Positions 12,230-18,147 of a stretch of 37,260 nt of DNA are shown piece by piece. The stretch lies in the IMG/VR virus record IMGVR_UViG_3300012949_000009, positions 1-37,260 of that record. One strand, given 5' to 3'. Position 1 is the first letter of the stretch. Every line of letters begins with the position of its first letter. This stretch comes from a virus. The position numbers and the translations under genes were made by a program. The notes below the pieces were generated by a model, which did no database searches, was not told the origin of the DNA, and saw nothing but the letters and a program-made list of their open reading frames with translations.

Positions 12230-12258
12230 ATTATATACGATATATCGTGCATTGTCAA
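12230..12258 (-). promoter_or_regulatory. Early (cro) promoter: TTGACA, 17 nt, TATAAT. Operator 2 (12236-12249) fills the spacer.
   Basis: The minus strand reads TTGACAATGCACGATATATCGTATATAAT. Confidence 0.75.
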
Positions 12259-12352: not shown

Positions 12353-12745
12353 ATGTCTTTCTTAGAAAAAATAGAATTGTTAATGAAAGAAAATAACATT
12401 AAAAACTTAAACCAATTAGCTGAAAAAACAGGAGTACCATATACAACAATCAGAAGTTTTTATGAACATGGTGGAGAAAATATAAAATTATCTACTTTAA
12501 AAAAGTTATCTGATTTCTTTAAATGTTCTTTAGATTATTTGGTTAACGAATACTCAACAGAAGAAAAAGAAAACAATTGCCCAGATAGAATAATACCAGA
12601 TTGTGAATTAACAAGAAGATTGCAACAATTAAACGAAAACGAAGGTATTAGAATTTTGTTTAACAAGGTTGGGGAATTAACAGAAAAAGAATTGCAACAA
12701 GTTTTAGACATCGTAGAAATAATTAAAAGAGAACGTAATAATTAA
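12353..12745 (+). CDS. CI-like / ImmR-like XRE-family repressor
   Basis: HTH NLNQLAEKTGVPYTTIRSFYEHG with RBS AAAGGAGGA. It is divergent from cro and upstream of an ImmA-like gene. Confidence 0.75.
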   Translation: MSFLEKIELLMKENNIKNLNQLAEKTGVPYTTIRSFYEHGGENIKLSTLKKLSDFFKCSLDYLVNEYSTEEKENNCPDRIIPDCELTRRLQQLNENEGIRILFNKVGELTEKELQQVLDIVEIIKRERNN

Positions 12746-13461: not shown

Positions 13462-14835
13462 GTGGCAGAACAAATTATTAGAGTAGCATTGTATATAAGA
13501 GTTTCTACTGATAGACAAGCAAAAGAGGGAGATTCCTTAGAAGCACAAGAAGAAGCACTTAGAAAATATGCTAAAGAAAAAGGTTATATAATAGTTGATA
13601 CATATATAGATGGTGGGGAGTCAGGACAAAAATTAAATCGTACTAATTTAACAAGATTACTTGAAGATGTGAAACAAAACAAAATTGATTTAATTTTATT
13701 CACAAAGCTTGATCGTTGGTTTCGTTCTGTCTCAGATTTTTATAAAGTACAATCTATTCTTGATAAACATAAGGTAAAATGGAAAACTATATGGGAAGAT
13801 TACGATACAACAACAGCTAGTGGTGAATTTTGGCTAAATATGAGTTTGGCATTAGCCAGAATGGAAGCTAAACGAACAAGTGAAAGAATAAAAAATGTTT
13901 TTGATTATAAATATAGAGTACAAAAAACGGTATGCAGTGGTGCTGTTCCATATGGATACAAAATATCAGAAGATAAAAAAATAATAATCGATGAAGAAAA
14001 GGCTCAACATATACGAGATTTATATAATTATTATATTGAAACTAATAATTTATTAGCAACAGTTAGATGGTTTCAAAATACAATTGCAAAAAAAAGTTTC
14101 TCATCAATTAAATTATATTTAAAAAACAAAAAATATATTGGTATATACGAACGAAAAAAAACGGGTGAAATATTTTATGATTATATACCAAGAATACTGG
14201 ATGATGAAACATTTTATAAGGTGCAAGAAATGTTAGAAAAAAACATAAAAAATTATACATCAAAAAACACAGAAAAACATTGCTATATATTTTCAAGTTT
14301 ATTAGTTTGCGGTGAATGTGGTGGCCGTTTTACTGGAAATCATCCACATAGAGAAGACCGAAATTATTACAGATGTAAAAAAGCAATCGAGAGTATTTAT
14401 TGTAAGAACAAAGTTACGATACCAGAAACGAGAATTGAAAAATATTTAATAGATAACATATTAGAATCTATAAAAACCAAAAAGATAGAAATAGAAAATA
14501 TAAGCAAAATAGAAAAAGAAAAACAATCTATTTTACCATCATTAAAAAATAAATTGAATAAATTAACCGAATTATATATAAATGATATGATTGATTTAGA
14601 TTATTACAAAAAGGAATATAATATTTTAAAATCACAAATTGATGAATTAGAAAATAAAAGTTTACTTGAAAATAGTCCGGGAATTGATTATAATAAAATT
14701 GAAAATTTCTTTCAAAATGATTTTGAAACAATGTATTATGCATTGACAAGTTTAGAAAAACGAAAACTTTGGATGAGTATAATAGATAATATTGAAATAA
14801 GAGGGAAATATGATTTCCTTATTAATTTGAAATAA
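13462..14835 (+). CDS. int: Large serine recombinase (integrase)
   Basis: Resolvase catalytic motif VALYIRVSTDRQ, a recombinase domain, a zinc ribbon CGECGGRF...YYRC, and a C-terminal coiled coil. Confidence 0.9.
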   Translation: MAEQIIRVALYIRVSTDRQAKEGDSLEAQEEALRKYAKEKGYIIVDTYIDGGESGQKLNRTNLTRLLEDVKQNKIDLILFTKLDRWFRSVSDFYKVQSILDKHKVKWKTIWEDYDTTTASGEFWLNMSLALARMEAKRTSERIKNVFDYKYRVQKTVCSGAVPYGYKISEDKKIIIDEEKAQHIRDLYNYYIETNNLLATVRWFQNTIAKKSFSSIKLYLKNKKYIGIYERKKTGEIFYDYIPRILDDETFYKVQEMLEKNIKNYTSKNTEKHCYIFSSLLVCGECGGRFTGNHPHREDRNYYRCKKAIESIYCKNKVTIPETRIEKYLIDNILESIKTKKIEIENISKIEKEKQSILPSLKNKLNKLTELYINDMIDLDYYKKEYNILKSQIDELENKSLLENSPGIDYNKIENFFQNDFETMYYALTSLEKRKLWMSIIDNIEIRGKYDFLINLK

Positions 14836-14885
14836 TGTGGTACTAAATGATAATACCCTGGAGGTTATTGTTAGTTAGTACCACA
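14836..14885. other. Candidate attP for the serine integrase.
   Basis: Perfect 11-bp inverted arms TGTGGTACTAA (14836-14846) and TTAGTACCACA (14875-14885) span 50 bp, centred on CCCTG|GAGG. It starts 1 nt after the int stop codon. Confidence 0.55.
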
Positions 14886-14903
14886 ACAGAAAGGTGGTAC
14901 TAT

Positions 14904-15371
14904 ATGAATAAATGTAAATACTTGAAAAAACGTACAAAAGGGATATACTGTTCCCACTGTAAAGATTATATCACTTTTAATAACTGTAAAAACTGTGACT
15001 CTAAAGAATATAAAATCAAACTATACAAATCTTTAAAGGCGAAAACAAAATTAAAAAATGTATCTAAAAAACAAGCCAAAAAAGAAAGAAATAGAAAAAG
15101 TGTTTTTGTTGATAATTTTGACGGATGTATTGAGTGTGGAAAAAGTAAAGATATTACTAGAATAGATAAACATGAGATATTTGGTGGTTCGCGTAGACAA
15201 ATAAGTATTAAATGGGATATGGTAATTCCTTTATGTAGGACGTGCCATAACACACCTGAAATAGTCAGAAAATGGCAAATTATAGGACAACAAGAATTTG
15301 TAAAAAAATATGGTTATGATTTATTTATGAAAGAATTTAAGTTAGATTATATTTTTAAGCATAATAATTAA
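14904..15371 (+). CDS. Cys-rich zinc-ribbon / HNH-like protein, possibly NinG-like.
   Basis: CSHC...CKNC, CIECG, HEIFGGSRR...LCRTCH. The start is taken at the ATG at 14904 (RBS AAAGGTGG), because the longer ORF would begin inside the attP candidate. Confidence 0.4.
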   Translation: MNKCKYLKKRTKGIYCSHCKDYITFNNCKNCDSKEYKIKLYKSLKAKTKLKNVSKKQAKKERNRKSVFVDNFDGCIECGKSKDITRIDKHEIFGGSRRQISIKWDMVIPLCRTCHNTPEIVRKWQIIGQQEFVKKYGYDLFMKEFKLDYIFKHNN

Positions 15372-15380
15372 TTTTATATC

Positions 15381-15409
15381 TTGTATGACCGACCGACTTA
15401 TGATATAAT
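15381..15409 (+). promoter_or_regulatory. Promoter: TTGTAT, 17 nt, TATAAT, with a TGa extended -10.
   Basis: TTGTAT at 15381-15386 and TATAAT at 15404-15409. The spacer contains GACCGACCGAC. Confidence 0.5.
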
Positions 15410-15434
15410 CAAAATATCAGAAAGGGGAAAAAAT

Positions 15435-15863
15435 ATGTTTAATAATGAATGGCTAAAAAAAATGAGAATTAAAAAAGGACTAACTCAACAAGAATTAGCA
15501 GAAAAAACGGGATTATCTAAATTTACTATTGAAAATATCGAACAAGGAAAAAGAAAAGGCTCACAATTAACTTGGGAAAAACTATATAATTTCTTTAATA
15601 ACGACTCTAATTTTATGATATCAGAAGATAATGATGAATTAATAAGAGAATTAAAACAAGATATAGAAGAATTTGGCGAAGATTGTCCATGTTATGTTTT
15701 TTATGAAATTATTAATGGTACGTTGAAATTTACAAATTATGATTTTGATACAGAGGAAAAGCCAATTACTGATGATGAATTATATAGAGACGAAGAATTA
15801 TTATCTACCACCTTAGGAGATGCATTAAAATTATTTGAAAGACAAAACAGTATTATAAAATAA
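15435..15863 (+). CDS. XRE-family HTH protein with an unknown C-terminal domain.
   Basis: MRIKKGLTQQELAEKTGLSKFTIENIEQGKR. RBS AAAGGGGA precedes the ATG at 15435. Confidence 0.65.
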   Translation: MFNNEWLKKMRIKKGLTQQELAEKTGLSKFTIENIEQGKRKGSQLTWEKLYNFFNNDSNFMISEDNDELIRELKQDIEEFGEDCPCYVFYEIINGTLKFTNYDFDTEEKPITDDELYRDEELLSTTLGDALKLFERQNSIIK

Positions 15864-15869
15864 AAAAAC

Positions 15870-15889
15870 ACCGAGGATTAAACCTCGGT
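15870..15889. terminator. Bidirectional hairpin terminator.
   Basis: ACCGAGG (15870-15876) pairs with CCTCGGT (15883-15889). An A-run lies on one side and a T-rich tract on the other. Confidence 0.6.
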
Positions 15890-15946
15890 TTCTTCATATA
15901 ATAGCATAAATAACATAATTTCTTCAATTGTAATTAATTCAAACAT
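15878..15946 (-). CDS. Possible 22-aa peptide MFELITIEEIMLFMLLYEETEV with a sequestered SD.
   Basis: RBS AAGGAGGGA lies 5 nt before the ATG at 15946. An 8-nt anti-SD sits 21 nt upstream in the mRNA. Confidence 0.25.
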   Translation of the reverse strand: MFELITIEEIMLFMLLYEETEV

Positions 15947-16012
15947 TTTATTCCCTCCTTGATATTATCTTACTGCATATAGGAGGGATTTCCTTTTTTA
16001 AGGCACAAAAAA

Positions 16013-16035
16013 AGACCGAGAATTAATCTCGGTTT
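16013..16035. terminator. Bidirectional hairpin terminator.
   Basis: ACCGAGA (16015-16021) pairs with TCTCGGT (16027-16033), flanked by A-runs and T-runs. The sequence is related to the 15870 hairpin. Confidence 0.6.
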
Positions 16036-16046
16036 TATTTTTATTC

Positions 16047-16475
16047 TTAACTTCCGTGGTTATATGCATTGAATCTAAAATCAAAACCTATAACATGAAA
16101 TATTGGTGCAACATCTGAAAACATACATATCATCCTATAATCTGAAGTAATTCTAAATACAAAAACAACGCTTTCATTTGAATATTTAATATTACTAGGT
16201 TTGAAATACAAATTTTCTATTGTAACTTTTTCAAAAACATTATCTTTTCTTAAATTAAACAAACTTCTTATAGTATATTCTTTTTCAAATTTTGATATTT
16301 TTTCAATTAGTTTTTTACAAAAATCTTTGAGTTCGTTGTCTGGAATTGCTTCAAAATTATATTTTTTATTATTTACTAAATATTTAAATGAAAATATTGG
16401 TGAATCATACATTATACCAAATTTTGATTCTAGATTTTCAAGTTTGTTCTTCTTACATTGACTGCAATTTGTCAT
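16047..16475 (-). CDS. Uncharacterised 142-aa partner of the Panacea-domain protein. It is a candidate toxin (PanT-like).
   Basis: It overlaps the upstream DUF4065 gene by 23 nt. The C-terminal VFVFRITSDYRMICMFSDVAPIFHVIGFDFRFNAYNH is loosely reminiscent of RelE/YoeB-type C-termini. Confidence 0.4.
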   Translation of the reverse strand: MTNCSQCKKNKLENLESKFGIMYDSPIFSFKYLVNNKKYNFEAIPDNELKDFCKKLIEKISKFEKEYTIRSLFNLRKDNVFEKVTIENLYFKPSNIKYSNESVVFVFRITSDYRMICMFSDVAPIFHVIGFDFRFNAYNHGS

Positions 16476-16980
16476 TTTCTCTAAAATAATTTATCATTTT
16501 TTGATGTTTTATCTCACAGTTTATAGGGGTACTTTTCCACGGTGTTTCAGAATGTGTCATATTTCTTAATTTCCATGCACTATATTGACCATATAATTCA
16601 TATATTTTTAACAAAAATTGTTCAATTTCCGGTGAAAAATTAATTACTTCCCCAGTATAGATTATTCCATTACCACCAAATTTTTTGTATTCATCATAAA
16701 CCTCTTTAACAACTGGGCCATGCTCCCAAGCCAATATTTTTTCTCTAAATAATGGTTTATTATATTTTGCCAAATAATATGCTTGTGCATAATAAAGCAA
16801 TTTTTGTAATTTCATATTAGTTATAAATTCTGTGTCGGTTACTGTTTGCATATAATCATTGGTGTTTAAAAACCATTTTGCAACATCATTTGCTCTCACT
16901 TTTTTCCACCCCCAAGAATTAATTTCTACTACAACAGTATTATATACACAGTTTATTTTATTTGTCAAATATTTCCACAT
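16453..16980 (-). CDS. Panacea-domain (DUF4065, SocA/GepA-like) protein, a PanA-type antitoxin. The true start is probably the GTG at 16899.
   Basis: NMKLQKLLYYAQAYYLAKYNKPLFREKILAWEHGPVVKEVYDEYKKFG and YGQYSAWKLRNMTHSETPWKST match the DUF4065 pattern. RBS GGGTGG lies 6 nt before the GTG at 16899. Confidence 0.8.
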   Translation of the reverse strand: MWKYLTNKINCVYNTVVVEINSWGWKKVRANDVAKWFLNTNDYMQTVTDTEFITNMKLQKLLYYAQAYYLAKYNKPLFREKILAWEHGPVVKEVYDEYKKFGGNGIIYTGEVINFSPEIEQFLLKIYELYGQYSAWKLRNMTHSETPWKSTPINCEIKHQKMINYFRENDKLQSM

Positions 16981-17022
16981 TTACAATAATATCTCCAATT
17001 TTACACATAAAATTCCCTTATA

Positions 17023-17187
17023 TTAATTATTTTTAGGCAATTTTATTAAGACCTTCTTTTTCCCTTCTAATACTTCTTTAGACCATTTAATCGGGATAAC
17101 AATGTTGTCAGTTTGTTGTGCTATATTTTTGTTTTCTCTAACATTTGGTCGAGTTTTTTCAAAAAAACTTTTTGGCAAACTTTTCAT
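17023..17187 (-). CDS. Hypothetical 54-aa protein upstream of the Panacea gene.
   Basis: RBS GGTGAGTGG precedes the ATG at 17187. The frame MKSLPKSFFEKTRPNVRENKNIAQQTDNIVIPIKW... is open. Confidence 0.4.
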   Translation of the reverse strand: MKSLPKSFFEKTRPNVRENKNIAQQTDNIVIPIKWSKEVLEGKKKVLIKLPKNN

Positions 17188-17230
17188 ATTCCACTCACCC
17201 ACCTATTTTATTTCAAAACTATTATTCATC

Positions 17231-17508: not shown

Positions 17509-18147
17509 CTAGCCTTTTATAATTATCTTTTGCCCTACATAAATTAAATTAACATTTTTTATATTATTATCCTTTGCTAATTTATCTACTGTAGTTTTAT
17601 ATTCTTTTGCTATTTTAGATAATGTGTCTCCTTTTTTTACTATATATACTGTTTCTTCTGTTTTTTTTGTTGGTTGTTCTATTATTGGTTTATTATTTTC
17701 TAATGCATTTACTCTTTTTTCTAAATTATCTATTCTATTTTTTAATTCTTCAATCATTTTTAATTCCTCCTCTTGTGTTTTTAATCTTAAATAAGCAATT
17801 GGTTTTGTTTTAATCCCTGCTCTATTATAACCAGCAGTAACACCTACGTATTGATCATAATATCTATTTTCATCTATATATATTGCAACGTGCCCATAAC
17901 CACTTTTAGTAGCATTAGCCCCCCATACGATTATATCTCCATATTGTGGCTTGTCCGTTTTTGTTGCTATATCGTAGCAAGATTCCGCCCAATCTTTAGC
18001 ATTCCCTCTAGCCTTAAATGGTATCCCGTGGCACAATCTAATATATTCTTGAACTAAAGTTACGCATTCACCTTTTAATTTATCGCTGTGTTCAAAACCG
18101 ACAACAGTATTTATTGTTTTATCTATAAAATGTTTTAGTGTTAACAT
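17509..18147 (-). CDS. Endolysin: an N-terminal CHAP amidase/peptidase plus a C-terminal LysM domain.
   Basis: The Cys in [10 protein letters not shown] and the His in GYGHVAIY fit a CHAP domain. [43 protein letters not shown] fits LysM. Confidence 0.8.

Follow-up and report, generated by a model that had tools for sequence, protein, structure and literature searches.

The window analysed here is the whole stretch of 37,260 nucleotides (nt) of viral DNA that makes up IMG/VR record IMGVR_UViG_3300012949_000009, and all coordinates refer to it. An earlier note on this DNA, made from the sequence alone, had pointed to three consecutive minus-strand open reading frames (ORFs), at 17023-17187, 16453-16980 and 16047-16475, and had proposed that the second encodes a Panacea-domain antitoxin coupled to the product of the third, a partner of 142 amino acids (aa). 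The three ORFs were indeed found at these coordinates, and those of 175 aa (16453-16980) and 142 aa (16047-16475) share 23 nt (16453-16475), the same overlap as had been reported. We conclude that the locus is a genuine two-gene Panacea antitoxin/toxin cassette of a temperate phage, encoded on the minus strand. Its genes are called here panA (16453-16899, the start codon being discussed below) and panT (16047-16475). The latter encodes the toxin candidate of 142 aa, which we assign to cluster T1 of Kurata et al. 2022 (PNAS, PMC8832971).

The 175-aa product of the panA ORF matched Pfam family PF13274 (SocA_Panacea) over residues 58-149, with a score of 82.6 bits against a cut-off of 25.7 and an expect value (E) of 5e-23, which bore out the Panacea signature read earlier from the letters. 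It also matched phrog_1281 (E 9e-45). The match with the NCBIfam SocA_antitoxin equivalog was partial (E 6e-18) and, with 65 bits, far below the cut-off of 190, indicating that PanA is a Panacea protein rather than a SocA orthologue. From its sequence, we classify it as a stand-alone Panacea-domain protein. Two phage-borne homologues of PanA were followed by genes of other kinds. In a Helicobacter cinaedi prophage (locus L041 of our set; 46% identity), the next gene (2012-2293) encodes a coiled-coil-like protein of 93 aa, and its counterpart in Blautia phage Montmirail (L054; 37% identity) a 110-aa protein with a hydrophobic C-terminus (1524-1856). Both were considered as relatives of PanT and rejected, being unrelated to it; they are examples of the swapping of Panacea partners among phages.

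The panA ORF probably reaches too far at its 5' end. Called mechanically, it starts at ATG 16980, while relatives of PanA begin 9-17 residues ahead of a conserved WFL motif, each behind a Shine-Dalgarno sequence of its own. Because the N-termini of these relatives match there, we take GTG 16899 as the probable start, which gives a protein of 148 aa. This codon is preceded, 6 nt on its 5' side, by a Shine-Dalgarno-like sequence read from the letters (GGGGGTGG, 16906-16913, minus strand). The nominal 175-aa ORF contains, at 16968-16939 of the minus strand and about 40 nt upstream of the GTG, a perfect match to the sigma-70 consensus promoter (TTGACA-N18-TATAAT). Perfect TTGACA-N16-18-TATAAT promoters are rare by chance in such DNA (0.09 expected from shuffles of the window, 3 found), and promoter-like hexamers could be seen by eye at the equivalent relative place in relatives. 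An intrinsic-terminator-like hairpin (16015-16033, minus strand; 7 pairs, of which 4 are G-C) followed by a T tract (CTTTTTTTGT) lies 3' of panT. With a promoter inside the nominal ORF and a start at GTG 16899, the transcription unit would thus consist of promoter, panA, panT and terminator, and the perfect promoter probably drives this panA-panT operon. The ORF extent given by the earlier note therefore exists as an ORF, and is probably too long as a gene.

We found no Pfam family (E up to 1) and no PADLOC family for the 142-aa PanT, in keeping with the earlier remark that it could not be assigned. It matched phrog_8366 weakly (E 5.5e-5) and NCBIfam MAG6450_fam below threshold (E 0.11), a family that 3 of 123 relatives reached at 4e-6. 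Searches of the Protein Data Bank (PDB) sequences with PanT alone and with two profiles gave chance matches only (Csm3, Mx1 and TFIIE-beta). Megablast of the 2.9-kb region and tblastn of PanT against GenBank phages and PLSDB plasmids gave no match, and phage relatives of the cassette were reached through PanA only. A word-indexed search yielded only 12 close relatives of PanT (50-100% identity). An exhaustive profile search, which covered 1.84 billion representatives, yielded at least 240 PanT-family clusters (at 50% identity) with E up to 1e-3, nearly all of them of 130-160 aa.

Scanning genomes with PanT homologues gave 32 loci, including ones from Clostridia, Negativicutes, Fusobacterium, Gemella, Peptoniphilus and Sedimentibacter. 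Panacea motifs were present in the same-strand ORF directly upstream of the PanT homologue in 30 of the 31 distinct other loci, and all of the 30 upstream partners that were aligned (PanA of the window and 29 from other loci) matched PF13274 in a Pfam scan. The antitoxin-toxin coupling proposed for this one locus is thus seen in nearly all of these loci. The flanks of these loci vary (prophage lysis modules, an ADP-ribosylglycohydrolase gene, an ABC-transporter gene); constant pairing amid differing flanks indicates that the pair is a conserved, mobile unit. In PanAT systems (Kurata et al.), two co-oriented genes no more than 100 nt apart are expected, shared by at least two species amid flanks that are not conserved, with an antitoxin that scores above the PF13274 gathering score and a toxin whose inhibition of growth is relieved by co-expressed PanA. 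Here the two genes overlap by 23 nt, the pair recurs in many genera with varied flanks, and the PF13274 score of PanA is above that threshold.

Two minor points concern the N-terminal part of PanT. A C-x-x-C motif (C4, C7) was considered as a zinc site and rejected, as even the 12 closest homologues do not conserve its cysteines. Separately, a 3,053-aa protein (P0161) matched positions 26-70 of the toxin profile, the region of the N-terminal helix, in 8 stretches; this is probably a low-complexity or repeat artefact.

The Panacea-linked toxins were catalogued by Kurata et al. 2022 (PMC8832971), who described 1,268 PanAT loci with 88 toxin clusters. In their Dataset S1, T1 appears to be the largest of these clusters. 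Its entries are 'hypothetical' toxins, with the antitoxin gene first and a 'noNTD' PanA, from hosts that extend from Firmicutes to Proteobacteria, Cyanobacteria, Bacteroidetes and Mollicutes; the T1 toxins that were tested are labelled 'mRNase' in Table S1. RelE-like clusters (T14, T28, T58 and T59) are catalogued as well. A tblastn search with PanA led us to a 46%-identical PanA in Salmonella phage vB_SemP_Emek, and the gene that follows it, for YP_006560566.1 (gp16), is listed as T1 (PMC8832971). Aligned by hhalign with our family profile A2, this protein gave a probability of 97.5% (E 5e-12, 111 columns). With hmmsearch and E-values scaled to the library of 1.84e9 sequences, A2 reached WP_097125245.1 of Spirosoma fluviale (E 3.9e-8), WP_043255446.1 of Pseudomonas knackmussii (E 1.2e-6) and YP_006560566.1 of phage Emek (E 2.7e-6), all three of which are in the T1 list of Dataset S1 (PMC8832971). 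In the loci from Escherichia phage EC.P3, Pseudomonas phage CF60a and Latilactobacillus phage TMW 1.706 P2, the A2 profile likewise matched the gene next to panA and no other. The narrow profile A1, made from 12 sequences, did not reach the three T1 proteins (E above 70), and PanT of the window shares only about 20% identity with the members from Proteobacterial phages. Since the narrow profile misses T1 and A2 reaches it, PanT belongs to a divergent Firmicute sub-branch that is joined to T1 after one iteration. On these profile matches, the toxin family is an already described one, T1, to which the locus adds a member, and the suggestion of a new PanT family was abandoned.

Two deposited annotations of T1-type pairs deserve mention. 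In phage Emek (L040, NC_018275.1), the panT gene (1868-2353, 161 aa) shares 62 nt with panA. Its deposited start is probably too far upstream, since the family alignment begins only at about residue 50, and the Emek construct found non-toxic by Kurata et al. may therefore carry a non-native N-terminal extension. In Latilactobacillus phage TMW 1.706 P2 (L055, OQ240254.1), the region 1048-1947 holds WCZ54921.1, annotated as a 'Cro/CI family transcriptional regulator'. In tblastn it aligned with the C-terminal half of PanA (E 3e-10, with 35% identity over residues 77-167). Next to it is a 'hypothetical protein', WCZ54922.1, which scores 64 bits with the family profile and is a PanT of T1 type, and the pair lies directly after the endolysin gene. 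The deposited annotation of WCZ54921.1/WCZ54922.1 looks wrong or incomplete.

The third ORF of the locus (17023-17202, minus strand) encodes 59 aa from GTG 17202, or 54 aa from ATG 17187. The earlier note had described it as a 54-aa ORF with a good ribosome-binding site, lying ahead of the pair and downstream of a late-operon terminator. The ORF is present between the endolysin gene and the panAT promoter, is lysine-rich and has a G-rich Shine-Dalgarno-like sequence; the proposed terminator (17514-17496) is weak, with 3 G-C among its 6 pairs and a poor T tract. A promoter-like sequence (TGCACA-N16-TATAAT) was seen at 17432-17405, about 200 nt upstream of this ORF. On their common strand, 42 nt separate the ORF from the nominal panA ORF downstream of it, and four near-identical contigs retain it, as might be expected if it encoded a regulator, chaperone or second antitoxin of the pair in a three-component system. 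Yet when the 59-aa product was searched by tblastn in the 55 loci that had been fetched, it retrieved only these four near-identical copies from the same phage (L042-L045), and no family match was found in Pfam, PADLOC, phrog or NCBIfam. No equivalent ORF was found upstream of panA in the four near relatives that were inspected (L001, L005, L046 and L050); panA follows the preceding gene within about 90-165 nt in L005, L046 and L050, and the ORFs that occupy this space in L048 are unrelated. The perfect promoter of the pair, moreover, separates the small ORF from the real start of panA. As the candidate third gene is confined to copies of one phage and precedes the promoter of the pair, we rejected the three-component variant, which we now find hardly credible; by these comparisons the small ORF is a phage-specific ORFan and not a third component.

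The cassette occupies a recurrent position. In the window it comes directly after the gene for a CHAP and LysM endolysin (17509-18147; Pfam scan), and the Panacea-PanT pair is similarly placed directly after endolysin genes of other types in L046 (Peptidase_M23), L005 (Peptidase_M15) and the Latilactobacillus phage (amidase). In L048, it follows a CHAP-CW_7 lysin, with two unrelated ORFs in between. The pair is followed in L046, L048 and the phage of the window by a convergent ORF of about 150 aa and then by a serine recombinase gene. The same pair was also found at loci where no phage genes are visible (L002, L003). The earlier claim of a moron slot between endolysin and the phage attachment site attP stands as far as the cassette is cargo at the junction of lysis and integration, in a slot that recurs in two other phage contigs; attP was not located in the window.

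To obtain a structural picture of PanT, we used AlphaFold2 with alignments of 12 sequences (predicted local distance difference test score, pLDDT, 80; predicted template modelling score, pTM, 0.75) and of 123 sequences (pLDDT 89, pTM 0.80). Residues 1 to about 25 were of low confidence in both models, and residues from about 26 to 142 formed one predicted domain. The N-terminal 90 residues or so, previously set apart as an unassigned portion, would thus belong for the most part to the same domain as the remainder. Both models comprise a strand (27-29), a long helix (46-66), a short helix (69-74) and a second strand (81-85), followed by a loop, three strands at about 103-132 and a C-terminal tail. 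RelE-type toxins consist of a strand, two helices and a C-terminal antiparallel sheet. Searched against the PDB with Foldseek, both models retrieved almost only toxins of the RelE, YoeB, YafQ, HigB and ParE types, the sole outsider being Txp40; the best probability was 0.99, with target-normalised TM-scores of 0.54-0.60. No significant match was found among viral predicted structures (BFVD). The loose likeness to RelE/YoeB that the earlier note had seen in the C-terminal segment thus holds at the level of the predicted fold, and PanT likely has a fold of the RelE/ParE type, as judged from these models.

An alignment of 31 sequences, with Firmicute and Proteobacterial members, showed F28, E82, R108, D132, Y138 and H140 to be invariant. 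YoeB-type RNases use a Glu, an Arg and a C-terminal His/Tyr, and the PanT segment FRITSDYRMI resembles by eye what we take to be the corresponding YoeB segment, RRITEEHRLV. E82, R108 and H140/Y138 may therefore be equivalent to the catalytic residues of YoeB.

Taken together, we consider it probable that the locus encodes a type II-like PanAT module, in which the toxin is a RelE-fold RNase that blocks translation and is neutralised by direct binding of the Panacea protein, to the benefit of prophage defence or retention. In such a scheme, the endolysin gene and the serine-recombinase module of a temperate phage of low-GC (guanine plus cytosine) Firmicute type flank the cassette, which the phage carries as accessory cargo. 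PanA would be made first from the common transcript, and its Panacea domain would bind PanT directly and hold it inactive. PanT would be an endoribonuclease of RelE/YoeB type with a long first helix and an inserted loop, in which E82, R108 and Y138-x-H140 would be the counterparts of the Glu/Arg/His-Tyr catalytic set. Its release in a lysogen would arrest translation, and this arrest would serve defence against other phages or retention of the prophage. The RNase activity, its ribosome dependence, the neutralisation by direct binding and the biological role of the pair are what we infer; what the analysis shows are the identities of the domains, the anatomy of the operon, the conservation of the pairing, the membership of T1, the predicted fold and the invariant residues. 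Stand-alone Panacea antitoxins have been found to neutralise toxins by direct contact (Ernits et al. 2023, PMC10440598).

Several observations weigh against this scheme, the first of them concerning the fold. The Foldseek statistics were modest (best E about 1e-2, root-mean-square deviation of 5-6 Å) and were obtained with predicted structures. None of the 123 family members matched the Pfam families ParE_toxin, YoeB_toxin, YafQ_toxin or HigB-like at E up to 0.01, PanT gave no PDB sequence match to any RelE/ParE chain, and hhalign of the PanT family profile with the E. coli YoeB and RelE sequences (entered by hand) gave probabilities below 2%. As no match was found at the sequence level, the link with RelE comes from the predicted fold. 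Nor does the fold by itself fix the target, because the RelE/ParE fold includes gyrase poisons (ParE). PanT could accordingly be ParE-like and poison DNA gyrase or another non-RNA target, with the RelE/ParE fold and no nuclease chemistry; YoeB/ParE and ParE2 chains are indeed among its Foldseek matches, and its sequence is not assigned to any RNase subfamily. We consider this very unlikely, as the best structural matches are the RNases RelE, YoeB and YafQ rather than ParE, and a Glu, an Arg and a C-terminal Tyr-x-His, invariant in the family, resemble the acid-base sets of the RNase branch. ParE proteins are not known to have such a set. The 'mRNase' class given to T1 by Kurata et al. (PMC8832971) also argues for an RNase.

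Further difficulties for the proposed RNase module come from the published assays in E. coli (PMC8832971). The T1 toxin of Clostridium cadaveris was toxic and its own PanA failed to neutralise it, while the T1 toxins of E. coli MOD1 and of phage Emek were non-toxic, so that up to now none of the T1 pairs is a validated toxin-antitoxin system. In addition, neither the two proteins of the pair nor the product of the small ORF had a match in PADLOC-DB v2 (E up to 1), and because no PADLOC model matches, a defence role is deduced from the position of the cassette. The same assays, with two of three toxins harmless and the third not neutralised by its partner, would be explained by a sensor-effector system of prophage defence. 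In such a system, unlike in a classical toxin-antitoxin pair of the addiction type, PanT would stay inert until the Panacea protein, on sensing an infecting phage, activates or licenses it. A sensory role for Panacea is favoured by Ernits et al. 2023 (PMC10440598). A strong promoter of its own serves the cassette. In several phage contigs with differing lysins, the pair comes immediately behind the endolysin gene, a typical place for cargo expressed in the lysogen, and a convergent serine recombinase gene comes after the pair in two other phage contigs. We nevertheless consider the sensor-effector system unlikely: no experimental defence phenotype is on record for any T1 pair, the PADLOC models match neither protein, the same pair occurs in L002 and L003 away from visible phage genes, and non-toxicity in E. 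coli may simply reflect the heterologous host.

A broader proposal, which we find doubtful though somewhat less so than the preceding one, is that T1-type PanAT pairs are, rather than classical addiction modules, abortive-infection or superinfection-exclusion devices of prophages, in which the stand-alone Panacea protein senses an incoming phage and unleashes a RelE-fold RNase. If true, it would account for the failure of T1 pairs to act as normal toxin-antitoxin systems in E. coli. It would also account for the recurrence of the cassette, with its own strong promoter, directly behind the endolysin gene of unrelated Firmicute phages, three of which, including that of the window, have a serine recombinase gene beyond it. 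By itself, the locus adds one phage-borne PanAT pair to what is apparently the most populous toxin cluster of the 2022 catalogue, and little changes with it. What T1 gains is a picture that can be tested, with region 26-142 as one predicted RelE-like domain and with E82, R108, D132, Y138 and H140 as candidates for mutagenesis. The Firmicute sub-branch, repeatedly placed directly after the endolysin gene and provided with its own consensus promoter, is a convenient system to ask whether T1 PanAT pairs are defence cargo, and it could show why the published tests of T1 in E. coli failed.

The window looks like a whole temperate-phage contig with a GC content near 20-30%. Each 400-nt window over 13-20 kb had a GC content of 20-34%, with no compositional step at the cassette. 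Upstream of the endolysin gene are two small ORFs at the usual position of holin genes and, further upstream, a long minus-strand run of large ORFs at the position of structural genes, both identified from position only. On the other side, a plus-strand block converges with panT. It contains a serine-recombinase-like ORF (13462-14835), of which a near-identical copy of 457 aa in a sister contig has Resolvase, Recombinase and Zn_ribbon_recom domains. Directly after it comes a cysteine-rich ORF of 174 aa (14847-15371), with several C-x-x-C pairs, a match to phrog_7566 (E 2e-11) and weak DUF968 and HNH-like matches; the ORF at the same place in L042, L046 and L048 has about 150-160 aa and no Pfam family. 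The block ends with a helix-turn-helix (HTH) gene (15381-15863; HTH_3/HTH_19), of 160 aa from its mechanical TTG start and called with 142 aa in sister contigs. The PADLOC matches of its product (HTH_VI, the N-terminus of RmrA, CapH) span the HTH only.

Between panT and the HTH gene, which converge, a minus-strand ORF of 22 codons (MFELITIEEIMLFMLLYEETEV) lies at about 15878-15946. It is preceded by a strong Shine-Dalgarno sequence (AAGGAGGG), is flanked by two bidirectional terminator-like hairpins (16012-16036 and 15870-15889), and may encode a small hydrophobic peptide or have arisen by chance. The attachment site may also be situated within this intergenic gap. The other two perfect promoters of the window are at 697-725 (plus strand) and 12230-12258 (minus strand). 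The second is directed away from the plus-strand recombinase block, which starts at 12353, and may be part of a lysis-lysogeny switch region.

Among known systems, a toxin of similar profile is the RNase-like AarT (WP_152878172.1, NetFlax node D3) of Acinetobacter guerrae. Ernits et al. 2023 (PMC10440598) report for it no HHpred match, an mRNA-interferase fold and inhibition of translation, a combination that is like that of the T1 toxins, and give it as partner an AAA ATPase, not a Panacea protein. No A. guerrae protein was among the matches of our last PanT profile search. With RelE, YoeB, YafQ and HigB, which are almost its only PDB matches, PanT shares the order of predicted secondary-structure elements. 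It is about 50 residues longer than these toxins, owing to the low-confidence N-terminal tail, the 21-residue first helix and the loop at 86-102, and it is paired with a Panacea protein, whereas they are paired with RelB, YefM, DinJ or HigA. The SocAB system of Caulobacter, in which the founding Panacea/DUF4065 antitoxin was found, has the same Panacea domain in its antitoxin and a toxin, SocB, that is unrelated to PanT. In this type VI system, SocB blocks the replication clamp and SocA serves as its ClpXP adaptor. The closest systems are those of T1, such as YP_006560565.1/YP_006560566.1 of phage Emek and WP_074844973.1/WP_074844970.1 of C. cadaveris. As in the window, a 'noNTD' Panacea antitoxin comes first and is followed, after a small gap or an overlap, by a toxin of about 135-160 aa to which Pfam assigns no family, and the pairs are often phage-borne. 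The T1 toxins and PanT share the motifs P-x-FSF, G-x-E, F-R and a C-terminal D-x-x-F-x-x-Y-x-H, PanT differing in that it represents a divergent sub-branch from low-GC Firmicutes, one profile iteration away.

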